From a virus (Duplodnaviria; Caudoviricetes), in IMG/VR virus record IMGVR_UViG_3300029305_003192: DNA of 64,000 nucleotides; one strand, given 5' to 3'. A program made the position numbers and the translations under genes. Below, one piece after another: positions 3,224 through 64,000 of this stretch. Each line of letters opens with the position of its first letter. Positions within the stretch are counted from its first letter, which is position 1. The notes below the pieces were generated by a model, which searched no databases, had not been told where the DNA came from, and worked only from the letters and a program-made list of their open reading frames with translations.

Positions 3224-3299
3224 AGAGCATCCTCCTTTTATTATAGGTTACAGTAGAGTTGTCATGATAATTTAATTTAACAAGAACGAGAATATAATT

Positions 3300-4925
3300 A
3301 CCGATTAGTAAAGAGATAGAATCTCTCGGTATGTTTCGTCTATGAAGATACCGGACGTGGCATACCTCGTCGAATAATCCCATGGCGACTACAATCGTGG
3401 ACTAACCAACCACAAGGGTTGTAGTGAGGCCGGGTACAAAATCATACACTTCAGTATGAGAGTAGTTTCCGGGAGAAGGCCTATACGGGTGGGGCTTGCC
3501 CCAACTTTCCAAATGTATCAGAGAGTCAGTGAGATTTCGAGAGCTCTCTGGAGTTTATAATAGTTATATAGAAACCTTTAATTACTGTGATACATATAAC
3601 ACAGCATGCTTAATAAGATAAACATCTATTGGTTATCATTAACCAATATTGGGAGAACTTGATTATATACTTCTCTATGGAGTGCGTCACGAAAGCCTAG
3701 TTGGCAATAGTCTTCATGAAGTATATAAACGAGCAATTCCACCACTCACCATGTGTGAAAGAACGGCTAGTACCACTTGGGGCGGATGCATATCCCTAGG
3801 AAGATATGTGTACGTATTCGCAGAAAGAGCCCTATGAAGGTGAGGTACCTGTAGCAGACCGCTATTAACCTAACTTTGAAGCAGGATTAATAGTTGGAAC
3901 TCTGTGATGGCTGCCGCGGAGAAGTCGGGCGATGGCAAGTTCGTCATGCTCCGTATATGATTCTTCGGAGTCATATGTTGGAAGAATAGTAGGGTGATAA
4001 GTCTCTGGAGCACATGAGTAAATATGAAGAAGTAACAGTGGATAGATTATACGTTTGGTATCAGGCTTCAATGATGAACCACGTATCAGTATTACGACAT
4101 TAAAAGTTCGATGTTCACGAATGTCGGGTACGCTCAATGTTCGCTATCAACAGTCTCAAATATTAAAGCTAACTTCTATATGATGCAGATTATTTACATA
4201 GTGGATTAAGGACCCATTATGTAAGTAATTTTCACTTTGTCTTAAAATCGCCGGCCTGCGTCCGGCTTTAAAGATTGGCAGTGCACGAAGTGCTCTAGTG
4301 CGACAGCACTACTATTGTCCGGCTCTGTCTGAGAATTACATCTCTACCGTTCCGGCATAGCCGTTGAGCGGGAGAGTGGAATTCGAGTCACAGCAACGTA
4401 AAAGCAATAAGGGTAAAAGCAAAATGCCGGACCCTTGCGGAGCGTCGCTGGCGGACATCAGGGGAGCCAGCAGCGGAGATAGCACACCGCAGGTGAAGCT
4501 CGCCGCAGGCAATGTGCATATCCATGAGACGAAGCCTATTATAAATTGATAACAATTGTTGACAGAGTCATATATACATTTGCAGCTCTTTCGACCGTTC
4601 CAATAAAGGTCGGAAGAGTGCAAATCAATACAAATATATGGCTTCGGCTGTCGCAATATTGTTACTATATTTTGGAAGGTTGGGGGAGAAGGTCCCTAGG
4701 AGGAGGGGTATCCCCTCCTTAACCTGCACCGTCCTCGTATAGTACCAACTCTTTTCTTCCAACAGCATTTCTTATACCAGCCCTTTTGTACCAACTGAAA
4801 GAGTTGGTACTATTTAGCGTCCGACCTCCTTTAAAGGACCCCTCGTTTACATGGAAAGGAAGAAGAGGGAGGACGCGTTCCAATGTATTATTAAGAAAAA
4901 TAATGGCCGCCGCGTCAGCGGCATA
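3300..4925 (+). ncRNA. Candidate very large structured non-coding RNA (or structured origin region)
   Basis: No credible ORF for ~1.7 kb. Dense helices whose G-U pairs work on the + strand, a cUUCGg tetraloop at 3963-3968, and a 15-bp long-range helix 3499-3513/4671-4685. Confidence 0.5.
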
Positions 4926-4967
4926 TTGTTCTTTGAATAGTAGATATTTAATATGGACTTCAAAGAG

Positions 4968-4977
4968 TATATATCAT
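4968..4977 (+). promoter_or_regulatory. Early-type promoter motif TATATATCAT
   Basis: The same motif precedes non-structural units at 7154(+), 30044(+), 50569(+), 1292(-), 21397(-), 46531(-), 61935(-) and all four cassettes. Confidence 0.6.
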
Positions 4978-4993
4978 CACATATGAAAGGAAG

Positions 4994-5497: not shown

Positions 5498-5545
5498 GAT
5501 ATATCCAATGACTATGATGTCATTGGATATTTTTTGTACCAGAGC

Positions 5546-5606
5546 AAAAAATCAATCACCACCAAGGTATCTAGAACCGCCAGGTACGTACCTGGCGGTG
5601 ATTGAT
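5546..5606 (-). terminator. Cassette terminator, copy 1, with invariant loop
   Basis: Stem 5551-5569/5589-5606 plus U-tract on the minus strand. Contains AGAACCGCCAGGTACGTA, identical at 11645 and 39090. Confidence 0.75.
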
Positions 5607-5617
5607 TTATCTGTGCA

Positions 5618-5905
5618 TTATATAATACGCAGATCGAACCCCTCGTCTCTGAGGGTTTTGATAGCTGGATAGAAATCTCTATCCAGCCTGATACACTTAG
5701 AATCGTGTATCATATTTACTATGTACAGAGAAGTGACGCCCAGGAATTCTAATGATTCCTTAATTGCACTGACAACGTCCGATGGCAGCAAAACCACAGA
5801 TGTCGAGTAGATATCGATCGAATGGATCGACGAGTTCGTGAAACCTTTGAAAACCTCCACTCTCGTGGTACTCTTTTCGATAGTATTAATAGATTTCATT
5901 GTCAT
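5618..5905 (-). CDS. Hypothetical protein, cargo of cassette 1
   Basis: 95 aa; SD GCAGAAAGGA; lies between the shared cassette leader and terminator. Confidence 0.8.
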   Translation of the reverse strand: MTMKSINTIEKSTTRVEVFKGFTNSSIHSIDIYSTSVVLLPSDVVSAIKESLEFLGVTSLYIVNMIHDSKCIRLDRDFYPAIKTLRDEGFDLRII

Positions 5906-6032
5906 AAGTACTTCCTTTCTGCCTTATAAAGGCTATGATAGTTTTATTAGTTCGGAGACTATCAACTCCTTTATTCTTACTAATATGATATATATGTCAT
6001 ATACACGGAAATCACGGTGCATAGAAATACCC
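5906..6032 (-). promoter_or_regulatory. Cassette promoter plus pseudoknot leader, copy 1
   Basis: 5976-6032 matches 39597-39653 at 55 of 57 nt. Leader pairings GGAG/CTCC and GATAGT/ACTATC are interleaved. Confidence 0.75.
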
Positions 6033-7113: not shown

Positions 7114-7200
7114 TAGAACTCCTCCTTTCTTAACTGTTATCCGGTTGGGGAAATATATATCATATCAGCGGCAAATGACTAAAATAAAGGAGATGTTAAT

Positions 7201-10771: not shown

Positions 10772-10929
10772 AAAAATCAAGTCCTCGGAACACTTCCGTA
10801 AACAGCCATAAGGTTAATGTATTCCATTTTAGATGGACCCCTTTTTGAACCCCCGTGAGTGATGAACTCACGGGGTATTTTCCGTCGTTGGACAATCATG
10901 TAATAAATATAACGATTGGAGATGATTAA

Positions 10930-11568
10930 ATGGCAGTAATGCCCCAGTTGGAATATAAAGGTTCGTTTGCTAAGTGCGTTGGTATAAAGGGTACCGATGC
11001 TTATGATATTGCGTTCAATAAACCTATGGAGTACTTCTATAGTGCAGATAACTACACCCATTTTATCAAGGGTTGTGAGAAGATGGTTAGAAGTCACGAA
11101 GATTACTCCAGGTTCAAAGACTATGTAATGAATGTAATCGGTATTGACTTCTGTCAGGTAACGCCAAACGTACGCTTAGGTGATGCTACAATTGAGATGC
11201 ACCATGCATTCTTCAACCTCTATGATCTTTGCGCAATTATTACTAACAAGAGATTGGAATGCGGTGAAAGAGTTAACACATTCACGGTGGCAAACGAAGT
11301 TCTTGATGAACACTTCGCCCTTCATATTCCGGTTGTAATGCTTGCTACGACAAACCACGAGATGGTAACCAATAGAGATATCTGGCTCAACGTTAAGAGT
11401 GGCTTCGGTTATATCTCTCAGTTTATCGAGAAGTATGCTCCATATATGACACCGGAACACAAGTACCGTATAATGACTACAATTAAGCTGTCTTATGAAA
11501 TCGATAGCTTTGATAATAATATCTTTGATGATACAGAAAAAATTAAACGAGTACTTGCGCATACCTAA
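10930..11568 (+). CDS. HNH-like (His-Me finger-like) protein, paralog of 23096..23908
   Basis: C..IEMHH..FNLYD ... EH ... L.TTNHE pattern; GACA-N6-TA promoter at 10891. Confidence 0.6.
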   Translation: MAVMPQLEYKGSFAKCVGIKGTDAYDIAFNKPMEYFYSADNYTHFIKGCEKMVRSHEDYSRFKDYVMNVIGIDFCQVTPNVRLGDATIEMHHAFFNLYDLCAIITNKRLECGERVNTFTVANEVLDEHFALHIPVVMLATTNHEMVTNRDIWLNVKSGFGYISQFIEKYAPYMTPEHKYRIMTTIKLSYEIDSFDNNIFDDTEKIKRVLAHT

Positions 11569-11616: not shown

Positions 11617-11678
11617 AAAAAAAATCACCGCCGCTAGGCTAACCAGAACCGCCAGGTACGTAACCCAGCGGCGGTGAT
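11617..11678 (-). terminator. Cassette terminator, copy 2, with invariant loop
   Basis: Stem 11624-11641/11661-11678 differs in sequence from copies 1 and 3 but still pairs; the loop 18-mer is identical. Confidence 0.75.
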
Positions 11679-11692
11679 ATTAAGTAACCGGC

Positions 11693-12235
11693 TTATTCGG
11701 TAGGAGCCGGTTTTGGAGGATTCTGCCTTGCCTTCTTTTCATCCTTTTTATCCTCCTTGAGGAGGTTTATGAGGGCCCTCTTAAGCCCCTCATCCTGAGA
11801 AGCCTTTTTGAGGAGCTCCTCAAGATCGCCGGTTGTTACCGGCTTAGTTCTGATTCTACGATCAAGTCTCAGGTGGTGTGCGGGTGGGAAGTCCACCGCA
11901 CACCTATAAAGCCCTCTGCCTGTGCAGAAAGCTTTATATGTCACCCCATCGGGGTGAATATCGGTCACCTCGGTGACCGTATAAAACCCGGGCTCTACTG
12001 AGCCCTTGATTGTCACACCGGTGTTGGTAATATCCAACACCGATGTTTGTGATGGCGATGCCGCGGCATCTCTTCTGGAAAGGCGCACGACCATGTGGGG
12101 GGTATCCCCCACCACAAGCTCTGCCCACTCGCCGTGGTAGAGCTTGTTGTCATCCATGAGCATCTTAACGATGCTTGAGGATGACGCCTCGTAATAATAG
12201 TTGTACAAAGGTCTGTTGTTATCGATCTTTCTCAT
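11693..12235 (-). CDS. Hypothetical protein, cargo of cassette 2
   Basis: 180 aa; SD GCAGAAAGGAG; visibly more GC-rich than flanking genes. Confidence 0.8.
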   Translation of the reverse strand: MRKIDNNRPLYNYYYEASSSSIVKMLMDDNKLYHGEWAELVVGDTPHMVVRLSRRDAAASPSQTSVLDITNTGVTIKGSVEPGFYTVTEVTDIHPDGVTYKAFCTGRGLYRCAVDFPPAHHLRLDRRIRTKPVTTGDLEELLKKASQDEGLKRALINLLKEDKKDEKKARQNPPKPAPTE

Positions 12236-12391
12236 AAGATCTCCTTTCTGCCTTTCGGCTACGGCGGTTTTGATCCTCGGAGACCACCAGTAACTCCTTT
12301 ATTAAGGTGATATGACGCGGTAGCTATGCTACATCATTCACCTCTTAATGCAATAATATGATATATACGCCATATGCCCGGAAATTACGGT
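12236..12391 (-). promoter_or_regulatory. Cassette promoter plus pseudoknot leader, copy 2
   Basis: ACCGTAATTTCCGGGCATATGGCGTATATATCATATT on the minus strand; leader pairings GGAG/CTCC and GGTGGT/ACCGCC, then GCC-GAAA-GGC. Confidence 0.75.
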
Positions 12392-30636: not shown

Positions 30637-32816
30637 ATGGCAAAGAAATCAATGGATAATATTGAGGTTAAGATGGGAGACCCAACGTGGGTAATTCCAG
30701 CTATCAATAATCTCACTACATATTCGACCGACGAACTTGTTGACCCAGAGGGCAAGTTCTCCAAGTATGCTATTCAGACATACGGTAAACTTGGTTACTT
30801 CACTGGTACAGAATCCGATGATGATTACGAACTTAAAGGCGTAATTGATTGTAAAGACCCGATTCTCAGTGAAGAAATTCAGGCTCTTCGTCGTAAGATT
30901 TATGATATGAATCCAAAGGGTAGGAGATATGGTACTGATATTATATCAGCACATGTATATACCCGTGACTTTGATAATGACTGTAGAGAGGATATGCTTA
31001 CTGGTAAAGGTTTTAGGATATCCAATCACGAGTCGTTCGATAAGAAGAATCAAAAGATACCAGACGGTCTTCAGAGCCCAGAATTCGGTAGTGACTTCGG
31101 CGACGACCTTGAATTTGCAGAAAGATATAGATGTGTATGTGGACTCAAGATGGGTCAGATGTATGAACATGAAATCTGCCCAGAGTGTAATACAGAAGTT
31201 CAGTACTGTGAGGTAGACCTTGAGAAGACTGGATGGATTTTCATCGAGGGTGGATTTAAAGTAATCACACCTATATATTACGCGAAGCTCGAAGCACTCC
31301 TCGGTAAGTATGATAGCCAGGACTCAGTTATCGGAGCAATCATCCGCTGTAACTATAAAGATGCAAAGACAAATGAGGAACTTGATGAAGCTGGTCTTAC
31401 AGATAGAGACCGAGAGATGATTGTTAAGCATCCATTTATCCGTAAAGGTATGGCATGGTTTGAACAGCACATTCTCGAAGTTCTCGATTTCTATAGGAGA
31501 GCTAAGCCCGGTAAGGCTAAATGGTTCGAAGAAATCATTGATAATATAGACAAAGTATTCTGCTCGAGAATACCAGTATATACATCAGTTCTCCGTATGG
31601 AAGCTCCTGGTGCAAAGGATGAGAAGGTATTTAGAACCAAAACTAATACCTGCTATCGTTCAATCATCAGGTCCGCAAACATGATTAATGATTTGGTATC
31701 TCGTCACTATGTAAAGAATGCTGACGATAATGCACACTTTACAACCACTTATGATATCAGTGAAATGACATCAATTGACAGATTCAGCGCTCAGATTCAG
31801 AAGGACCTCAAGGACCTCTTCGAAGAAGAGTTCACAATTCTGTCAGGAAAAGAAGGATATATTCTTGGTAAGGTAGTATCTGGTAGATACAACTTCTCCG
31901 CAAGAAACATCATCATCTCTGGTGGTGCCGACCTTCACTCAGACGAAATCATGGTTTGCTATTCCACATTCATTGAGCTCTTTAGATATGAGCTCACAGC
32001 ATACTATGCTAAATATAATAACTGTACAATATCAGAGGCCAATGATGCAATCCTGAAAGCACAGTCACGATTCGATAAGCAGGTATATTACACCATGCTC
32101 TATATGGTTAATACGAATGATATCCATGTAATAGTTAACAGAAATCCGTTAGCATATAGCGGCTCCCAGTCGTGAGGCTGGTGAGAAAACTCTACTTTAT
32201 ACGGGGAAATGCTAGCCACCTCTTTTGAGGTTCCGTGCTACATTTACAAGCGTTAGCATAATCCGTAGCCAGGTCTCAGTTTACTGAGACAAGGTTCAAC
32301 GACTATCGAAAGGGTAATCCGATACTTACATCGGGTGAGTAACCGAGTAGAGTAGGGCCAAGTGGTAGGTTTCTAGATGATATTAGTCTAGAGTGATTCC
32401 TTTAAACCGAAATGATGAGCATCTCATAAGAGTTTATGAGTTGGTGATATAGTCTACGCAACATGGTAACATGTTGAACCCAGTACTGGGTTGATGGTAA
32501 TTAACGACTACCATTTACTTGCACGGCAATTAACTATGGATCATTCCTTGCACTTCGTATCGTTCATGTTAAATCTGATATTGGAGATAGAACTCTCACC
32601 GTTAATAAGCGTATCCTCATCGTTATGGGTGCAGACTTCGACGGTGACCAGGAGAATATATTCAGAGTATTTGGCGACTCACTTAACGCAACTATTGCGA
32701 GACAGATGAACCCGAGATATACGCTCTTTATCGACAAAAAGAATAATCAACTCAATCGAGCGTTGATGCCTACGAAGGATGAAGCTATCGGCTTCTATAC
32801 CTTCAATAATATCTAA
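30637..32816 (+). CDS. rpoC: Phage RNA polymerase beta'-like subunit (probably non-virion RNAP); spliced join(30637..32149,32527..32816), 600 aa
   Basis: Zn finger CVCG...CPEC and GRYNFSARNII; splicing restores NRNPSINYGS; catalytic GADFDGD is in exon 2; lies in an early-type operon. Confidence 0.9.
32150..32526 (+). ncRNA. Group I self-splicing intron (377 nt, no homing endonuclease ORF)
   Basis: P1 CCGUUA/UAGCGG has the U-G pair at the 5' splice site. P ACGGGGAAA (~32201), Q AATCCGTAGCC (32260), R GTTCAACGACTA (32294), S GATATAGTC (32446), P9 hairpins and terminal G at 32526 are present. Removal restores the reading frame. Confidence 0.93.
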
Positions 32817-36128: not shown

Positions 36129-38999
36129 TTAAATGAAGAGTTTATCATTCTCAACCTGCTTGAGACGAATACGAGATGAGTGGAATTTCTTCATACCTGC
36201 ATTAACGAATGTATTAGGAACTGTAGCGAAGTTGATACCTACATTCATGAGGTCCATTTCATATGGTCTGGAGCCAATACATGCTGAGCATATCTTCTCA
36301 CCAATACAGCACATTGGTGAACGTACTTTGATTGGTTTATTGATAAACTGCTTATAGTTCTCGTCGGTGACAGTAACTAATTTACCCTCACCTACGATGA
36401 CATTCTGACCTTCAAGGTCACGCCAATTATCCTCGGTGTATGTCAATGTTAAGTAACCCTTAGTATGACAATCTGAACCCTCTTCGTCTACTACGGTAGC
36501 GCCGAACAGAGCATAGAACTGCTTTGTTACATAACCAGCATCGGCTGTACCTACGGACTTAGGATATGAAGCAGATACCACCATGTTACCAGCTTTTGCA
36601 ATTTCGTCCTTTCTAAAGCCTTCTACATAGCTCGACTTAATAACGTCAAACTGACCTGTACCAGCATTATAAATAGGACCAATCATAGTATTGATATTCT
36701 TAAGCTGGTCATCGACTTTAGCCTTAGCACCAGATGCGAACAAAGTTCTTGATGTATCGGCATCAATTTTCTTCTTAAGCATATCTACAAGCTCATCCTC
36801 AAGAGCAGCCACTTCATCCAATGTCGGATTCGGGTTTTCTTTGAAGAATTGCTCCTTACGGGCAATAATCTTCTTGTCTGGAATAATTGTAGCCTCTGTC
36901 ATAGACGATGCGAAAATAGTAGTTGTCTTATATGCATAGAACTGAATAGCCTTAAGGAATGGCCATACTTTATCCGTGGTAATTCTATCATACTTAATAG
37001 CTGTAGCTACAAGGGCAAAAAGTTTCTCATACCCCTTCTTATCAATAGGGATATTCCAGTATCCATCTGGGATAATCTCAACGATATATGGCTCAATGAT
37101 AATCTTATTGAATGTAAGAATACCCAGGGTTGTTTCAACCGGTTTCTTATTGGTATACTGATTAGCAGCAAGAGTTACTGTATCATAATGAATATATTTG
37201 GAATTCTTAATCTTCTTGGTTTCAAGGTCGGTAGTCGTAGCAAACCATTCAGTTAACTTCTTCATACCAATATTCTTGTAGTTGGTATTCAATATCTCAG
37301 CAACAGCATGGGCTGGTGCAGGCTTACCCTTAGGGTTAAACTGCATCATAGAGTAAAGACCAAGTACACCCTCGTTACCCAGGGTCTTAATAAGTTTACC
37401 CTGACAGTCGATATAGTGCTTCTTAGACATGATAATATTCATTGTCTCGTCGTTAGCTTCCTTAGAGAACATAGCACGATGAGATGTTTGGTCGCCATCA
37501 TAGTCACCGCCGATAGCTTCGAGGAACGAGTTATCCATATTAAGAGTATCGTTGAACGCTACTGCCACCTGCTCCGGTGGTGCATCAGGTTCTACTACTG
37601 GGTAATATGGAAACTCTTTCTCAATACCCTGAATTCGAAGCTTTATTGGTGTAGTTTTGATGGTTGATAATACATGAATCATTGATGGGAAGATACCAAA
37701 GTATGAGATAAGTGGATATCTAGTAACCCACGTGGTCTTATCTGACGAGACCTCGACCGCTGCGATATATAGTAAATCAGTCCAAGTGAAATCACGATCA
37801 GCGATAGGTGCCATACCATCAGCATTCGGATTCTTCGGATCAAAAGGTCTTCCTGCAAACTTCAGTGGAATAATCTTCTGACCACTCGGAGTCTTGATTC
37901 GTACAGTCACGGGTTCAAATCTTGTCTCATAGTTATCAATGAACTTATCAATTCGCTTCTTGATAAGATCTGCAGTATAATCCTGCATTGGGTCATCAAG
38001 CTCATATGATTCAACATTACCGCCTTTAAGTGCCAAATTAAGTCGGTTACCCGATACTTCAAACTGCTCAGAAAGGTAATTGGCTACCCAACGAGCAATG
38101 AATGGGAATAATGTAACACAAAGCTCAGCAAGTGGAATACCTGTATGATTAACGTCAATAGGCACTTCATCCGGAGTATCATACTGGTCAAGTACCATAC
38201 ATGAGATAACTGAACGGTGACCATAGTCCGGAGCTTTACCTACAACGTACTTATTGAAGAAACCATCGGATTTCTCAATGATACTTCTGAAGTATTTATG
38301 GAGTTCCAGAGTCTTAAGCTGAATGCGATACTTCGCAGCATGACCCATGAATAAGAATGTCTTATCATTCAATGACTTTGCAAGACGAATGATATCGATA
38401 TACATATTATTGACCTGTGGAATCTTAGCAGGTCCATCGCCGGTTCTTTCCACATCTCTGTAGAATACCGGCTGTACTACGAACTTATTGATGAATATTT
38501 CATTCGGTTCAAATGACTCAATCATATCGATACGTTCGTTACGCTCTCTGGATTTATTACGCTTCCATTTAATCTTTGAGTAGTTCTTGATAAACCAATC
38601 CAATCCACAGTTAGCTGGATTAGCCTTCGGGTCATCATCTTTAAGTTTAATGAGGTCACCATTTTCAGTAACCTCCCAACACCCTTCGCCGGCGATACAC
38701 TTCGATATATTCTGCTGAAGTTTAGTAAGGATTTCATAAACGAATGGATGTATGATAGTTGTATTGAGATCGATATAAGCATACTGGCGCTTACGTTCAT
38801 CGACTGTCTTACCGAATATCTCTTCGGAGAATAATCCATCCACTGTAGGGATACCTTCTCTCTCAAAGGATACTGGATTGGTAACAGGCTTCATTCCGAG
38901 ATACTTAATAGACAGGTCAATTACTTCTTGCGTCTGGATGTCTACCTTTAATGGGACATCCGGTCCGACGGTGCGGACATCTGGCATTTCGTTAGCCAT
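36129..38999 (-). CDS. rpoC: Phage RNA polymerase beta'-like subunit (probably virion RNAP)
   Basis: DGLFSEEIFG, GKAPDYGHRSVI, TRYP, catalytic GGDYDGD, SGAK, TADAGY, VRSPMCC...ICSAC.G; AACC-N6-TA late-like promoter at 39028; start after AAGGAGG. Confidence 0.92.
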   Translation of the reverse strand: MANEMPDVRTVGPDVPLKVDIQTQEVIDLSIKYLGMKPVTNPVSFEREGIPTVDGLFSEEIFGKTVDERKRQYAYIDLNTTIIHPFVYEILTKLQQNISKCIAGEGCWEVTENGDLIKLKDDDPKANPANCGLDWFIKNYSKIKWKRNKSRERNERIDMIESFEPNEIFINKFVVQPVFYRDVERTGDGPAKIPQVNNMYIDIIRLAKSLNDKTFLFMGHAAKYRIQLKTLELHKYFRSIIEKSDGFFNKYVVGKAPDYGHRSVISCMVLDQYDTPDEVPIDVNHTGIPLAELCVTLFPFIARWVANYLSEQFEVSGNRLNLALKGGNVESYELDDPMQDYTADLIKKRIDKFIDNYETRFEPVTVRIKTPSGQKIIPLKFAGRPFDPKNPNADGMAPIADRDFTWTDLLYIAAVEVSSDKTTWVTRYPLISYFGIFPSMIHVLSTIKTTPIKLRIQGIEKEFPYYPVVEPDAPPEQVAVAFNDTLNMDNSFLEAIGGDYDGDQTSHRAMFSKEANDETMNIIMSKKHYIDCQGKLIKTLGNEGVLGLYSMMQFNPKGKPAPAHAVAEILNTNYKNIGMKKLTEWFATTTDLETKKIKNSKYIHYDTVTLAANQYTNKKPVETTLGILTFNKIIIEPYIVEIIPDGYWNIPIDKKGYEKLFALVATAIKYDRITTDKVWPFLKAIQFYAYKTTTIFASSMTEATIIPDKKIIARKEQFFKENPNPTLDEVAALEDELVDMLKKKIDADTSRTLFASGAKAKVDDQLKNINTMIGPIYNAGTGQFDVIKSSYVEGFRKDEIAKAGNMVVSASYPKSVGTADAGYVTKQFYALFGATVVDEEGSDCHTKGYLTLTYTEDNWRDLEGQNVIVGEGKLVTVTDENYKQFINKPIKVRSPMCCIGEKICSACIGSRPYEMDLMNVGINFATVPNTFVNAGMKKFHSSRIRLKQVENDKLFI

Positions 39000-39062
39000 T
39001 ATATTTAACCTCCTTTGTGAAGTCAATTATATAGAGGTTTTCGAATCGGGTCTTCTAAAAGC

Positions 39063-39122
39063 AAAAAAATCAACACCGCCTAAGTAACTAGAACCGCCAG
39101 GTACGTACCTGGCGGTGTTGAT
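39063..39122 (-). terminator. Cassette terminator, copy 3, with invariant loop
   Basis: Stem 39069-39086/39106-39122 plus U-tract; invariant 18-mer at 39090-39107. Confidence 0.75.
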
Positions 39123-39133
39123 GTTAGTATGGC

Positions 39134-39523
39134 TCACCAGAGAAGGCAAGCCAGTTTATCCTCGATTTCTTCGAGGAGCTGGCGAGTTCCCTCGCCGATA
39201 TAGTACCCATACTTTTCTGCAAGTATGGATATGCTGGATGTTGGATAATCAGTGGAATTCATATCCACTAATACCGATGATATATCATCGGTATCTACTG
39301 TGATAAATAACGCCACATCCATTTTTCGTATTACGAAAAATGGAAGGAATGTACCATCACACTCGAAGAATCTTCCGTTCGCATGGATATTAGTGAAAGC
39401 GGTTATCTTTTTGAAGTCATCAACTGTGACAGTTGATTTCCGACTTTTATCCGTGGATAATTTGCGGATGATTTCCTTTGCATAGCAGGATGCTGTATTA
39501 AACTTATGATTGTAAGTATTCAT
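39134..39523 (-). CDS. Hypothetical protein, cargo of cassette 3
   Basis: 129 aa; SD GAGG; flanked by cassette elements. Confidence 0.8.
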   Translation of the reverse strand: MNTYNHKFNTASCYAKEIIRKLSTDKSRKSTVTVDDFKKITAFTNIHANGRFFECDGTFLPFFVIRKMDVALFITVDTDDISSVLVDMNSTDYPTSSISILAEKYGYYIGEGTRQLLEEIEDKLACLLW

Positions 39524-39653
39524 AATTACCTCAACTTTCTACCACTTTATCGTGGCGGTCAAAATGATTTATTTAGAAGGCCGTATTACCTTCTATCTTA
39601 CTAATATGATATATATGCCATATATACGGAAATCACGGTGCATAGAAATACCC
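39524..39653 (-). promoter_or_regulatory. Cassette promoter plus leader, copy 3
   Basis: 55/57 identity to 5976-6032; leader AGAAGG/CCTTCT stem and CCAC-loop-GTGG before AGAAAG. Confidence 0.75.
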
Positions 39654-44875: not shown

Positions 44876-45583
44876 TTAGTCAAGATACTTCTTACGTCTT
44901 GGCTGGTATGCCGGACGGTATCTTTCGAGATTACCATTGTTGATAGAAGCATAATACTTCTTAACAATGAAGCCTGTAAGGTTACGGTAACGGCGTCTAT
45001 CAGCCTTACCTGTGAGAACATCGATTGGGTTCTCGTTATCATACAGGTTGGAGATGATAACCTCTACAGGTTTGTTGCACTTGTTCTGTGGGTTATTCTC
45101 GTTATACTTCACGTTTCTTGCATCGAAGAGAAGTGTGAAGATTTTGTTAGGATCGAGCAGTACGATGATATACTTACCCTTCTTACCAAGCTCGTTGAGA
45201 GGCTTGTCCTTATCACCCTGAATACCGTACATGTTTACGAACTTCTTGAAGTCCTCATTGTACTGTGGGATACCGTCGACGAATACGTTGTCCTTACCAA
45301 CCACGTTCTGTACGATGTTAGTATTGGACTTAGGTACCCATACCTGGAAGGATGTCTGGAATGCTCTGCGGTTCTGCTTGGATTCTGTATCGTACTCTGA
45401 GTTCTTATCATCAACCCAGGTATCGATCTTGACAGTGAATTCACCATCAATATAAGTTGCAGCAAGTGCAGTGATATTCTTTTCAACGTCTTCCTTGCTG
45501 ATAGTAAATGCTGCCATTGTAAGCGGACAGCCACATGTGTTGTATGCGAGAACGTCACATACGTTGTTATTTGCGTTTGACAT
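44876..45583 (-). CDS. Hypothetical protein, codon usage of a highly expressed gene
   Basis: 235 aa; SD AAGGAGG; basic C-terminus. Confidence 0.8.
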   Translation of the reverse strand: MSNANNNVCDVLAYNTCGCPLTMAAFTISKEDVEKNITALAATYIDGEFTVKIDTWVDDKNSEYDTESKQNRRAFQTSFQVWVPKSNTNIVQNVVGKDNVFVDGIPQYNEDFKKFVNMYGIQGDKDKPLNELGKKGKYIIVLLDPNKIFTLLFDARNVKYNENNPQNKCNKPVEVIISNLYDNENPIDVLTGKADRRRYRNLTGFIVKKYYASINNGNLERYRPAYQPRRKKYLD

Positions 45584-45658
45584 TTGAGCTTCCTCCTTGA
45601 AATTATTGTTAGTTCTTTAATACCGTTAAATGTATTAATGACGTTATTCTCTCCATCA

Positions 45659-46501
45659 TTAATTCATAATGTCTGAGAGCTTATCGTTATACATCTCTAG
45701 GGTCCCAGCCACTTTAGGTCCCCAGCTCTCATCACAATAGATAGGTCCTATCTCATATAGAGTTTCATATCCCTTATCTATGTACGAGTTCCTGAGTAGT
45801 TCAGCAGTGTATCTATAGCACTCAGCAACACTGTCGAATTCTCTAGGATAATCACCATCCATTATACCGCATGCATTATTGGCATTACGATATTCCATAG
45901 GCCAGTCTTCAGAGTCACATAATCCAGACTCCCATGTTGATATTGCGAGTATTGTTGTCGCTGATATTCCATACTCATCCTCTATAGCTATAAGCTCATC
46001 TACAGCTAGTGCTACTGGATGGTCTGGCGAATACTCGCGGTATCGTCGTTCTATAGACCACTGAATTAGTTCCAACAGATGCTCTCGAGATGCACCCGTT
46101 ACATTCTGAATGTCGTTCCGGTCCATAGATAATTGTGCCACCTGTGGAGTAGTTTGATGTGATGCATAAACTTGAGTATCAGCTACTTGTCTTTCAATAG
46201 TCAGATTGTCAATATCCTCAAGTTCTTTTCGCATCGCTTCGATGGTATCCTTCATGCGGTCATTCTCAGATATCAAGTACTCGACTTCTTCATTGAGATT
46301 GTCGTTATTGGCCTGTAATAATTCCATCTCAGCCTGAACTTCAATCATCTCATTATGAATTCGTCGAGTCTCCGATATAACCGCTATTATCAGAAAAGCT
46401 ACAGAGACTATGATGACCATCCACGTTACTATCATAGTTAACATGGAGTCAAACTTAGCCACCCGCTTCTTCTCTGATTCTAAATCAGTCTTTATCTTCA
46501 T
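45659..46501 (-). CDS. Membrane-anchored glucosaminidase/lysozyme-fold peptidoglycan hydrolase
   Basis: TM + coiled coil + LAISTWESG, NNACGI, FDSV.E, Y...G..TL.EIG.IYC; start at 46501 after AAAGGAGGTG; early-type promoter. Confidence 0.8.
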   Translation of the reverse strand: MKIKTDLESEKKRVAKFDSMLTMIVTWMVIIVSVAFLIIAVISETRRIHNEMIEVQAEMELLQANNDNLNEEVEYLISENDRMKDTIEAMRKELEDIDNLTIERQVADTQVYASHQTTPQVAQLSMDRNDIQNVTGASREHLLELIQWSIERRYREYSPDHPVALAVDELIAIEDEYGISATTILAISTWESGLCDSEDWPMEYRNANNACGIMDGDYPREFDSVAECYRYTAELLRNSYIDKGYETLYEIGPIYCDESWGPKVAGTLEMYNDKLSDIMN

Positions 46502-50604: not shown

Positions 50605-51663
50605 ATGGATACTTCTATCAAAGAAGAAATCATTCAGCAACTAAGTCAGTTGCCAGTATATAATATCTCATCTAATGGTATTCAGCATACTGTTAGATGC
50701 CCATATTGTGGGGACTCAAACAATCCCACACATGGTCATTTCTCGATTCGAATCGACCCAAATGACCCCCTAGACCCAATGTTATATAGCTGTTTCAAGT
50801 GCCCCTCTTCAGGGATTCTTACAGCTCAGACATTAACGGACCTGGGTCTGGTTATAGATAGCTCCATCTTGTCTGGACTATCAAAGATATCTCAGGCATC
50901 ATCAAGAGTGCATAAGATAACTATGATAAAGACTGAGCAGTTAGAGGTACCGGTTGTCAGTCCAAGTGAAGTAGCACTGAATAATCTTGATTATATTAAC
51001 ACTAGACTCGGTACTAATTATACTGTAACCGAATGTGCTGCTATGGACATTATACTTGACTTACATCAGTTCATGCGACATAATAAGATACAGTCATTGT
51101 ATATGGGTAACCCGATATCGGACGCATTGATTAACTTCATAACGTATCATTACGTAGGCTTCATAAGCAAGAATCGCAATACTATAGCATTCAGATACAA
51201 TGGTATCAATGCAGATAAGTTCGATGAGCAGCCGAAGAGGTGGGTCAAATGTAAAGTCAATCCAAAAAATATGGATACCAACTCATTCTATTCACCACCA
51301 GCTACTATTGACATCTTATATACGCACCCAATCAATATTCATATTGCTGAAGGTCCGATGGATATACTGTCGATAATGCAAAACTGTAGAATCACTGATA
51401 GTGATGATTACTTTTACGCAGTATGTGGATTTGGATATAGTGCGATACTTACTAACATAATCCGTATGGGACTTAATACGGGTCTCAATTTACACATATA
51501 TGCAGACGGTGATAAGACTGATGGTGAGATACTTTACCAACTAAATAAGTCCAAGCTATTAGACTGGGTAGAGCACCTCTATATTCATCGTAATGGTACA
51601 GGTGAGAAGGATTTCGGAGTACCGGCGGACAAAATAAAGAATACCTATAGGAAGGTATTCTAA
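50605..51663 (+). CDS. DNA primase (Zn finger + TOPRIM)
   Basis: CPYCGD...CFKC, IAEGPMD, YADGD, EKDFG. Confidence 0.85.
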   Translation: MDTSIKEEIIQQLSQLPVYNISSNGIQHTVRCPYCGDSNNPTHGHFSIRIDPNDPLDPMLYSCFKCPSSGILTAQTLTDLGLVIDSSILSGLSKISQASSRVHKITMIKTEQLEVPVVSPSEVALNNLDYINTRLGTNYTVTECAAMDIILDLHQFMRHNKIQSLYMGNPISDALINFITYHYVGFISKNRNTIAFRYNGINADKFDEQPKRWVKCKVNPKNMDTNSFYSPPATIDILYTHPINIHIAEGPMDILSIMQNCRITDSDDYFYAVCGFGYSAILTNIIRMGLNTGLNLHIYADGDKTDGEILYQLNKSKLLDWVEHLYIHRNGTGEKDFGVPADKIKNTYRKVF

Positions 51664-62070: not shown

Positions 62071-62149
62071 CTCTGGTTGACTCCAACTTTACCCAGTAAG
62101 CTAAATATTCATAGCTTACTGGGTATTACTAAAAACAAAGAAAAAAATA

Positions 62150-62433
62150 CAAAATATAAAGGGGGTACGGTATCGTACCCCCAACTTGTTTGTACCACAT
62201 GCTACATGATACACTCCTTTCTGCCCCTTCTCGGGACTACAACGGTTTTATGGTATGGAAGACCGAGGTAACTTCCTTTAGTAGCAGATATAAATATATC
62301 CGGCTTGAGAGAGTTCCGAATGGAACGATAAGCTGCCGTTATGATATATTTATCTACCCCTCATTCAATTATACTATATATATGCACAATATTCCGATAT
62401 TACGGTCTAATCCCTGGCACATAGAAAATACCC
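62150..62433 (-). promoter_or_regulatory. Cassette copy 4: promoter, leader, SD, ATG-TAG and terminator (no cargo gene)
   Basis: ACCGTAATATCGG..TGCATATATATAG promoter; GGAAG/CTTCC and CGGT/ACCG leader; GCAGAAAGGAG; ATGTAG at 62207-62202; hairpin at 62161-62182. Confidence 0.65.
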
Positions 62434-62462: not shown

Positions 62463-64000
62463 TTACAGCAGTTTCGTAGTATGAACGCTGATAGGATTTT
62501 CAATTTTACTATTGACTGTGAGGGTCGGTAAACTGAGTCCTGTGAACCTCTCGAGTCCCTGCATGAATCCTGTCATCTGTGCTTCAGCATCCTCAATTCT
62601 GAGAGACTTCTGAATTTCCTTGTTAATCTTCTTATCATATCTCTTATTGATAGAGAGAAGCTGATTGGAAGAAAGGAGCATTGTGATGATACTTGTAGTT
62701 GCTCTGAGGATTTCACTATCAGTAGCAACGGAGTTGATAACTCCAGTACCAGCAGGTTCGAATTCTTCGGTGACGATATTGTAACCAAGATTCTTAGTTA
62801 CCGCATACTCAAATATAGCACACATGTCATATTTGAGCTCACGGAGTGCTGCATTTTTTTCATGGTCACAGAGACATCTGAAGAACGGATGCATGTGATT
62901 CTTAATTTCATTTCTTGATTCATCATCGATACCGTCCCATGTATATACTGTTGGGAGACATGGGTCATCTGCAAACTTATTGAGCATTACATCGATAGAT
63001 GTAAGCATGAATGCCTCTGCAATGTATCTGAGGATAGTATGGTTGATATAATCATCCGGTGTAGAATCCTCATTAGCTTCGATTGCTGTAACAAGGTCAA
63101 ATATAACGGACATAGTTTCGAGATTGAAGCCTCTGATATAACCGTTCTCATATGCCGAACGACATGCGAGTGTCGCGTCGAGCACAGCGTCTCTTGTGCA
63201 TCTCTTCTTGAGTTCGGAGTCTCCACCAACGAAGATTACGCCGGTATCACCGACGAACTTAACGAGTCTGAGGTGTGCCTCCATATAATCCTTCTCAAGT
63301 GTCTCTGCATGATGGAATACCTTTTCCTTAGCAGAGTTGAAGTCTTCCTTGAGTGCCGCAAGAGCCGCCTGATATGCAACTGTATCCTTTGAGTAATCTT
63401 CAAGAAGCAGATACTTTTCAGTAATAGTAAGTCTTGGGGCTCTACCGGCAGAACCTTCAATAATCGCGGATGGTTTCTGGCATTCCTGTGATGGGAACAT
63501 CATATGGAATTCATCGGAGTCTCCGTAATAATGCTCGTAGTTTTCGACCGTTTCATCAGATGCGTTCGTCTTAAGGAAGTTAAACATACGCACCTTTGTA
63601 TAGTTAACGATTTCAGAGCCAGTGAGAATAGCGAAGTCAGCAGCATAATCCTTGAGTGCCTTACTTGTAAGTGAAAGCTGGAAGAGCATTACTGAAAGTT
63701 CACCGGCATTTACAACCTTCTCAGCAGCACCCTTAATAGCAGAACCGAGAGCAGAAAGAATCTGGTCATCATAACTTGGTGCAAAGATGATAGCCTGAGA
63801 ATGTTCGCTGTTAGCCAGGTTGACGATATCATTGATAATGCTGTAGTGTTCGTTATACTTCACCATGTGGTCGAAGATGAAGACACGTGGATTACGAGTA
63901 TTTACGAACTCCTTATCGCCTCTGAGATAGAGAGGTGCCCAGAGCAGGTGACAGTCGAGTTTGTAACCTCTGTTAATTGTGTATGTAGTCTCATCAGTAT
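62463..64000 (-). CDS. groEL: GroEL-like phage chaperonin (5' truncated by window edge)
   Basis: Frame is open to the edge. GYKLD, NPRVFIFD, IFVGGDSEL...DAVLDATLACRSAYENG and GVINS...L..A.SI..MLLSS match the chaperonin apical and equatorial motifs. Confidence 0.88.
   Translation of the reverse strand, partial: TDETTYTINRGYKLDCHLLWAPLYLRGDKEFVNTRNPRVFIFDHMVKYNEHYSIINDIVNLANSEHSQAIIFAPSYDDQILSALGSAIKGAAEKVVNAGELSVMLFQLSLTSKALKDYAADFAILTGSEIVNYTKVRMFNFLKTNASDETVENYEHYYGDSDEFHMMFPSQECQKPSAIIEGSAGRAPRLTITEKYLLLEDYSKDTVAYQAALAALKEDFNSAKEKVFHHAETLEKDYMEAHLRLVKFVGDTGVIFVGGDSELKKRCTRDAVLDATLACRSAYENGYIRGFNLETMSVIFDLVTAIEANEDSTPDDYINHTILRYIAEAFMLTSIDVMLNKFADDPCLPTVYTWDGIDDESRNEIKNHMHPFFRCLCDHEKNAALRELKYDMCAIFEYAVTKNLGYNIVTEEFEPAGTGVINSVATDSEILRATTSIITMLLSSNQLLSINKRYDKKINKEIQKSLRIEDAEAQMTGFMQGLERFTGLSLPTLTVNSKIENPISVHTTKLL

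Follow-up and report, generated by a model that had tools for sequence, protein, structure and literature searches.

The RNA leaders that we describe here resemble several known systems. The CPK-1 class of pseudoknots, founded by the operator knot of T2/T4 gene 32 (PMC3835772), consists of H-type folds in phage 5′ leaders with a stem 2 of 6–7 bp, a loop 1 of 0–2 nt and stacked stems. The PeSL cassettes of the T4-type phages RB49 and phi1 (PMC2839356) carry orphan cargo with a repeated early promoter and an upstream terminator hairpin, and are gained, lost and swapped by recombination. Engineered and riboswitch pseudoknots that impede scanning by RNase E (PMC9943677), and a flaviviral xrRNA able to block RNase J1 in vitro (PMC5760640), share a coaxial knot of 11–15 bp that lies upstream of the protected region and whose effect does not depend on sequence. 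CptI of Eubacterium rectale (PMC4627078) is a coaxial H-type knot with a 1-nt loop 1 and a long A-rich loop that is able to form an A-minor helix. Lastly, the early promoters of phage AR9 (PMC5312081) have the same core as those found here and the same 6-nt spacing to the transcription start (+1).

The locus that we compare with these lies in a window of 64,000 nucleotides of phage DNA, by which we mean the whole stretch analysed. A preliminary description had drawn four copies of an H-type pseudoknot on its minus strand, in the 5′ leaders of small cassettes, and all four were found where it had placed them. They represent a real, uncatalogued and clade-restricted cis RNA element. Unlike the gene 32 operator, this element is tied to no single gene or autoregulation; it is followed by a hairpin and a strong Shine–Dalgarno (SD) sequence, it belongs to swappable early cassettes, and classes of unrelated sequence replace each other. 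It differs from PeSL in that the promoter is of the virion RNA polymerase (RNAP) type rather than sigma-70, and in that the structure lies in the transcribed leader and itself swaps; a text search of the PeSL paper (PMC2839356) found no mention of a pseudoknot. The roadblock precedents are reporters, ligand-gated aptamers or eukaryotic virus RNAs, whereas the phage leaders are constitutive and natural, and the three-way junction of the flaviviral xrRNA differs from them in secondary structure. Missing here are the tandem arrangement of CptI ahead of its terminator and toxin gene, its 45-nt processed monomers and their single-stranded tails. AR9 leaders are mostly short and unstructured (PMC5312081), unlike the knot leaders. 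In the literature searched, which covered few subscription journals, we found neither such a leader nor a description of a constitutive, natural phage roadblock knot in a Bacillota host.

The genome and its host

The window is part of a 156.8-kb record, and the same genome extends up to 239.7 kb in other assemblies. It was detected in runs from animal faeces and gut. RNA run X24 contained scattered contigs only and is uninformative on expression. Outside the element, the window encodes the beta-prime subunit of a multisubunit RNAP (36129–38999, minus strand, 956 aa), which is related to proteins of AR9, LPJP1, phiR1-37 and Fusobacterium jumbo phages. Placed by this gene, the genome belongs to the jumbo phages of the AR9/phiR1-37/phiKZ type. 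The beta-prime gene is whole in the window and split in two in the relatives L206 (12265–15455) and L271 (3272–6459); a gap of ~240–290 nt separates the halves in close strains and is probably an intron. A group I intron match (RF00028, 56.8 bits) is found at 32140–32476 on the plus strand, at the end of an RNAP subunit gene. A long stretch of the window without a credible gene (3224–4990) is conserved in strains.

SD sequences are strong in this genome, and an AGAAAGG-type extension occurs in 16 of 147 genes, against 0.3 expected. This enrichment fits a Bacillota host; read from SD usage alone, a Bacillota gut host is most likely.

Early promoters and the position of the knot

Every copy sits 3′ of a 40-nt motif whose core matches the virion-RNAP early promoter of AR9. 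These motifs occupy, on the minus strand, 5979–6018 (cassette 1, predicted +1 at 5978), 12352–12391 (cassette 2, predicted +1 at 12351), 39600–39639 (cassette 3, predicted +1 at 39599) and 62367–62406 (cassette 4, with a deviant core, predicted +1 at 62366). Early transcription in AR9 begins 6 nt after the promoter core (PMC5312081). The promoters in the window have an AT-rich core with a predicted purine start 6 nt on, and the genome encodes a multisubunit RNAP; by their sequence they are virion-RNAP early promoters of the phiKZ-related type, with start sites predicted from the spacing. A sigma-70 scan at cassette 4 stayed at chance level. The leader motif as first described stands, but its description had missed both the virion-RNAP early promoter and the knots of unrelated sequence that occur in the same slot.

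The knot usually begins 5–17 nt past the predicted start. Stem 1 lies at +10 in copy 1, at +5 in copy 3 and at +11 in the relatives L195 and L022. Its position is further downstream in copy 2 (+55) and copy 4 (+91), where a hairpin starting at the 5′ end comes first.

Knots were scored by the weaker of their two stems, i.e. as "balanced" knots, with the chance level taken from dinucleotide shuffles. A score that summed both stems was dropped because terminator hairpins dominate it. The record holds 22 promoter cores and nine extended promoters. A balanced knot follows 9 of the 22 cores, compared with 12% of random windows (p = 7e-4), and one or two of these nine are probably due to chance. Of the nine extended promoters, six clear the balanced-knot cut-off without reservation, a seventh, that of a gene-less RNA, clears it but its MFE differs, and copy 3 is weak. 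Many early promoters in this genome have plain or hairpin-only leaders. Hairpin-only leaders that provide natural controls for the knot follow early promoters at G000 38290–38370 (minus strand) and 142915–142960 (plus strand).

Fold of the four copies

The H-type fold holds for copies 1, 2 and 4, and is weak for copy 3. Copy 1 (5936–5969; this and the following features are on the minus strand) has a 4-bp stem 1, GGAG/CUCC (5969–5966 paired with 5957–5954), a loop 1 of a single U, a 7-bp stem 2 (5964–5958 paired with 5942–5936), no loop 2 and an A-rich loop 3 of 11 nt that ends in AAA. This is the fold as originally drawn, except that stem 2 is one pair longer. A 5-bp hairpin (5933–5921) and then the SD (5920–5913) follow, together spanning 5913–5933. 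This SD-proximal hairpin is exchanged for a different paired stem in L196 and in run X13. Copy 1 alone has a nested alternative fold at similar energy, and the alternative is lost in the L196 orthologue.

Copy 2 (12260–12297) has a 7-bp stem 2 that reaches 9–10 bp if one bulge is allowed, and it shows two pair-preserving changes in L199. A 5′ hairpin that buries a further SD-like tract precedes it (12302–12348, kept in L199) and a GNRA hairpin with the SD follows (12241–12259). Copy 3 (39556–39595) combines a stem 1 of 7 bp with a stem 2 of just 3 bp; in L271 both stems are unaltered, while loop 3 and the hairpin are altered. Copy 4 (62237–62276) lies behind a long 5′ hairpin (62280–62361) and has a 5-bp stem 1 and a stem 2 made of 4 bp, a 2×2 mismatch loop and a further 3–4 bp. 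Loop 1 of copies 2 and 4 is 1 nt if stem 2 is extended.

We refer to these copies and their counterparts in relatives as class A. Conserved in this class are a G-A-G/C-U-C core in stem 1, the AAA that closes loop 3, and a GAAAG that is invariant 3′ of every copy. The hairpin before the SD is wholly different in sequence yet paired in 8 of 9 class A copies.

Statistical support and covariation

Compared with dinucleotide shuffles, copy 1 (p = 0.006) and copy 2 (p = 0.036) have better balanced knots than expected, copy 4 is borderline (p = 0.058, a value diluted by its long leader) and copy 3 fails. Strain orthologues reach p = 0.002–0.016. The same score is attained by only 2 of 140 other gene-upstream regions and by 4% of random 80-mers.

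The four copies in the window were aligned with five from relatives (L022, L195, L196, L199 and L271). MAFFT left the stems out of register, and the alignment was done by hand. In the nine copies 87 of 98 stem cells are paired, against 75.6 with the 3′ letters shuffled (0 of 20,000 shuffles as good), a count that is supportive rather than a formal test, as the alignment was fitted to the proposed structure and leans towards it. When six lineages are considered, 58 of 65 cells are paired (1 of 20,000 in shuffles). Both-side changes occur at seven pairs, namely pairs 3 and 5 of stem 1 and pairs 1, 3, 4, 5 and 6 of stem 2. The pairing count and these changes bear out the earlier proposal of a covarying cis RNA motif in the 5′ leaders. 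At the copy-3 site, the leaders of L019 and L021 lack a convincing knot.

The both-side changes also bear on the idea that the repeats have no RNA function and are kept as recombination homology for cassette shuffling, with the pairing a by-product or a DNA-level feature. The cassettes are mobile, as are those of PeSL (PMC2839356): they are missing at the corresponding sites in L195, L208 and L206, and their cargo is swapped. However, recombination homology needs neither both-side changes nor G-U pairs, unrelated sequences yield the same fold in the same slot, and the conserved homology is mainly in the promoter and the 3′ loop. We consider this explanation very unlikely.

Unrelated knots share one slot

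Three classes of knot with unrelated sequence, A, B and C, occupy the same slot after early promoters in one genome. Class B is found at three sites and has a stem 1 of 9–12 bp, a stem 2 of 5 bp and a loop 1 of 3 nt. Its copies are nearly identical, show no both-side changes and retain an unpaired SD-like tract at the 5′ end. Class C is found at a single site (G31439) and has a 6-bp stem 2. The CPK-1 stem 2 of 6–7 bp is present in copy 1 (7), L195 and L022 (6), class C (6) and copy 2 (7, plus 3 more), but not in copy 3 (3 bp) or class B (5 bp), and copy 1 also has the CPK-1 loop 1 of 1–2 nt without inter-stem nucleotides (L1 = 1, L2 = 0). In the modelled folds, the geometry of copy 1, L195, L022 and class C belongs to the CPK-1 class, and coaxial stacking is predicted.

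At the copy-2 site, a class A knot is present in the window and L199, a divergent class A variant in L195, and class B in L196, L203 and run X12, and the cargo is homologous (176–182 aa) whichever knot stands before it. In the window the copy-1 knot precedes a 95-aa protein. It is nearly identical in L196, where the protein behind it has 87 aa and is unrelated, and in run X13 it precedes yet another start. The copy-3 leader precedes unrelated proteins in the window and L271, and its site is empty in L206. Leader and cargo can each change without the other, and more than one knot is accepted in the slot. The shape of the knot, more than its sequence, seems to be what matters. By exchanging unrelated pseudoknots before a single gene, nature has in effect run an experiment that points to selection on RNA topology.

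A gene family that takes three knots, and a knot shared by unrelated genes, speak against a riboswitch, a specific antitoxin mimic and an autogenous operator; an operator of the gene 32 type is unsupported. An operator of a broader kind would be one whose shape is recognised by a single phage protein that shuts off or boosts the whole early regulon, like gp32. The CPK-1 geometry of copy 1, as in the gene 32 knot, would suit such a protein, as would the stem-1 core and the terminal AAA of loop 3 that class A keeps. But the unrelated cargos mean that it would not be autogenous, and it would have to recognise three unrelated sequence classes with differing stem and loop sizes in one slot. Gene 32-type operators also have an unstructured A/U-rich run from the knot to the SD, where the leaders here have a hairpin. 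We regard an operator as improbable.

The invariant GAAAG would also fit another alternative, in which the knots act, like the pseudo-ToxI of phage PhiTE, as decoys for type III toxins of the host (CptN/ToxN/TenpN). CptI has a similar geometry (coaxial stems, a 1-nt loop 1 and an A-rich 9-nt loop), comes from gut Clostridia and is processed at GA/AAG (PMC4627078). Early expression, the anti-CRISPR gene nearby and the gene-less copy 4 would fit a decoy as well. However, GAAAG is the ordinary SD extension in this genome, no 5′ site or single-stranded tails match those of CptI, and the high specificity of antitoxins for their toxins (PMC5086642) contrasts with the interchangeable knots. Type III antitoxins are tandem repeats of 31–62 nt (PMC3401426); the leaders share the H-type knot with an A-rich loop, but occur as single dispersed copies, never in tandem, which sets them apart from this group. 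Rfam gave no ToxI match, although in the RF02519 search of the genome the control itself was unmatched, so that this search has no bearing on ToxI likeness. There is only a slight chance that the knots are decoys.

A compact H-type knot with an A-rich loop 3 and an adjoining SD would also be compatible with a ligand-sensing riboswitch, similar to preQ1-I or SAM-II, that frees or hides the SD, and the knot strand can pair with the SD once the knot unfolds. The preQ1-I riboswitch has a loop 2 with a ligand-pairing cytidine; class A lacks loop 2 (L2 = 0), and hence the pocket cytidine. There is no conserved unpaired core and the cargos have no common pathway. The preQ1-I model RF00522 gave only a 10-bit chance match elsewhere in the genome, and no preQ1 match at the knot sites even at E ≤ 10, with the control above the cut-off in one genome. 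A riboswitch is extremely unlikely.

Distribution of the element

Rfam searches, with both gathering and E-value thresholds, covered single leaders as well as the window and the remainder of the genome; they returned only the group I intron at 32140–32476. The knot matched no family, in agreement with its initial description as an unnamed motif. Resemblances to the hammerhead, pistol and twister found no support in Rfam.

Among AR9 early leaders none of the 22 tested has a knot, the one hit overlapping coding sequence. Nor was a knot found in the leaders of JD-Fnp4, LPJP1 and 60 other jumbo-phage promoter sites, the latter chosen for an SD within 14 nt and thus biased to plain leaders. No class A knot occurs at a promoter in 160 loci around distant RNAP homologues (29–49% identity). 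A descriptor scan of 7.7 Mb on both strands gave 16 matches, compared with 11 in reversed controls, and the promoter-linked matches are all from this phage clade. DNA pattern scans for the promoter or the knot in the records of IMG/VR, JGI metagenomes and GTDB that were open to search gave nothing usable, and BLAST of the leader against GenBank phages gave chance matches. The plain leaders in this genome, together with the lack of a knot in AR9, JD-Fnp4, LPJP1 and the 60 other sites, indicate that the knot is dispensable for early expression.

Cargo genes and gene-less cassettes

Cargo ORF 1 (5618–5905, minus strand, 95 aa) and cargo ORF 3 (39134–39523, minus strand, 129 aa) belong to no family, and unrelated cargo is found at the site of the latter in L271, L019 and L022. 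Cargo ORF 2 (11693–12235, minus strand, 180 aa) is a member of a fast-evolving orphan family, with 42–70% identity between strains where the flanking genes are over 90% identical; such divergence would be typical of a host-conflict protein. The three proteins are without assignment in Pfam, PHROG, NCBIfam and Atlas. One class B knot precedes a gene of the DUF1874/AcrIII-1 family with the GH motif intact. Ring nuclease genes of this family lie on early cassettes at different sites in L003 (15433–15828, minus strand; G000 45432–45827) and L019 (9491–9889). The two are 52% identical, have the GH motif in both, and suggest a host with type III CRISPR.

Cassette 4 (62140–62366, minus strand) is a gene-less unit of ~210 nt (z −3.8). 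Downstream of its knot, 62161–62236 on the same strand holds a hairpin, the SD, an AUG-UAG start-stop within a hairpin (62207–62202) and a terminator (62182–62161). The unit is either a vacant cassette or a small RNA. A gene for a GroEL-like chaperonin (phrog_5725, E 2e-23; 62463–64000, minus strand) is directly upstream. L022 has a gene-less, multi-domain early RNA of ~420 nt (10830–11254, minus strand; z −7.1) that can form a pseudoknot at +1 and has no Rfam match. As the knot is kept in cassette 4 and is able to form in the L022 RNA, it needs no protein product. A further gene-less, highly structured early RNA of ~220 nt, in L004 (6940–7186, minus strand; G000 about 50940–51185), ends in a terminator (z −5.9) and also has no Rfam match.

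Shine–Dalgarno sequences and the role of the knot

The 5′ strand of stem 1 is SD-like in class A, as was noted when it was first called a decoy SD. Plain early leaders (at 7153 on the plus strand of the window, and in other jumbo phages) have a AAUAAAGGAG-type SD ~5–20 nt past the start that is used directly, and the class A strand shares its sequence and position. Among 19 leaders, 16 have a purine tract between +5 and +12. Probably the ancestral leader was plain, and the stem-1 strand is its SD, captured as structure was added. No start codon is conserved behind the decoy SD, and a uORF after it was rejected as not conserved.

Masking the knot lowers pairing of the SD in most leaders, e.g. 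from 0.63 to 0.00, from 0.66 to 0.01 and from 0.51 to 0.11; for copies 1–3 of the window this unmasking by the knot fails. The 3′ end of the knot is 0–20 nt before the SD in all coding copies. This proximity, and the drop in pairing, would suit an element that only enhances translation or insulates folding, as a 30S standby or loading element or by keeping the SD single-stranded, with any gain in stability secondary. There is a precedent in tisB, for which a 5′ pseudoknot is reported to be essential for standby translation (PMC7708055). The unpaired 5′ SD-like tract of class B, moreover, resembles STAB-SD elements. On the other hand, the knot persists in gene-less cassette 4 and at +1 of the gene-less L022 RNA, and the SDs are strong already. 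Standby at tisB also requires protein S1, which plays a lesser part in Bacillota. An enhancer or insulator alone is in our view unlikely, and it can hold together with a role in mRNA stability.

With about even confidence, we favour a role as a 5′ roadblock that depends on the fold and would both hinder mRNA decay and leave the SD open. The interchangeable sequences argue against recognition by a ligand, toxin or cargo and for a physical role, in which the knot would act by its topology and not its sequence. Two coaxial stems (11–17 bp), with the A-rich loop 3 in the minor groove of stem 1, would form an obstacle within a few nucleotides of the 5′ end and slow decay that depends on this end, either by the exonuclease RNase J1 or by scanning endonucleases of the RNase Y/E type. 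The messages of small early proteins, e.g. the AcrIII-1 ring nuclease, would persist longer as a result. The folded knot would also sequester pyrimidine-rich strands that are otherwise able to pair with the SD, and the small hairpin would keep the SD exposed whichever cargo is recombined in.

Published results are consistent with the steps of this roadblock. Scanning by RNase E is impeded by H-type knots of 11–15 coaxial bp but not by orthogonal hairpins (PMC9943677). In Bacilli, long stretches of mRNA are shielded by 5′ structures (PMC3997798), and RNase J1 can be blocked mechanically by folded RNA (PMC5760640). In AR9, the 5′ ends of early transcripts appear dephosphorylated at a time when host mRNA declines (PMC5312081). 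Against a roadblock, the knots of copies 2 and 4 lie 55 and 91 nt downstream, where a 5′ hairpin would already protect the end. To our knowledge, there is no demonstration of a simple H-type knot stopping RNase J1; the known 5′ stabilisers in Bacillota are hairpins, bound ribosomes or proteins. Of the functions first suggested for the motif, a 5′ stabiliser nevertheless fits best, the gene 32-type operator found no support and the type III antitoxin mimic is unlikely.

A wider proposal, which we offer tentatively and with some doubt, is that the leaders could form a family of natural RNAs that obstruct nucleases without a ligand and that correspond in function to the xrRNAs of eukaryotic viruses. 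The xrRNAs are defined by a ring topology, in which RNA loops around the 5′ end, and they stop a 5′–3′ exoribonuclease at a fixed position. With at least three sequence origins, they would be portable stabilisers, shuffled with the promoter for new anti-defence genes during the destruction of host mRNA. The knots, of 35–45 nt, are natural candidates for asking whether a plain H-type knot blocks RNase J1 or Y in Bacillota, and might serve as portable stabilisers of mRNA in Gram-positive hosts. Candidate anti-defence genes are flagged by the promoter-knot signature as well: an AcrIII-1-family protein is encoded on one such cassette, and the remaining cargos are orphans.

Terminator-like elements at the 3′ ends of the cassettes

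Terminator-like elements close cassette 1 (5545–5612), where a conserved large loop is able to pair with the 5′ arm, cassette 2 (11618–11680) and cassette 3 (39060–39125), all on the minus strand. Similar terminators are found at G000 146480–146560 (plus strand) and 32520–32600 (minus strand) and at L271 3142–3210. A pairing between the leader and the 3′ loop was considered and dropped; copies 2 and 3 are compatible with it, but it is disrupted in L199 and missing from copy 1. The cassette terminators have a sequence-conserved loop of ~20 nt, and their 5′ arm can pair either with this loop or with the outer strand before the U run. The pairing of arm and loop keeps 9–10 of 10 pairs, with one both-side change, and the terminator may be a conserved two-state 3′ element, or else a site for recombination or protein binding.
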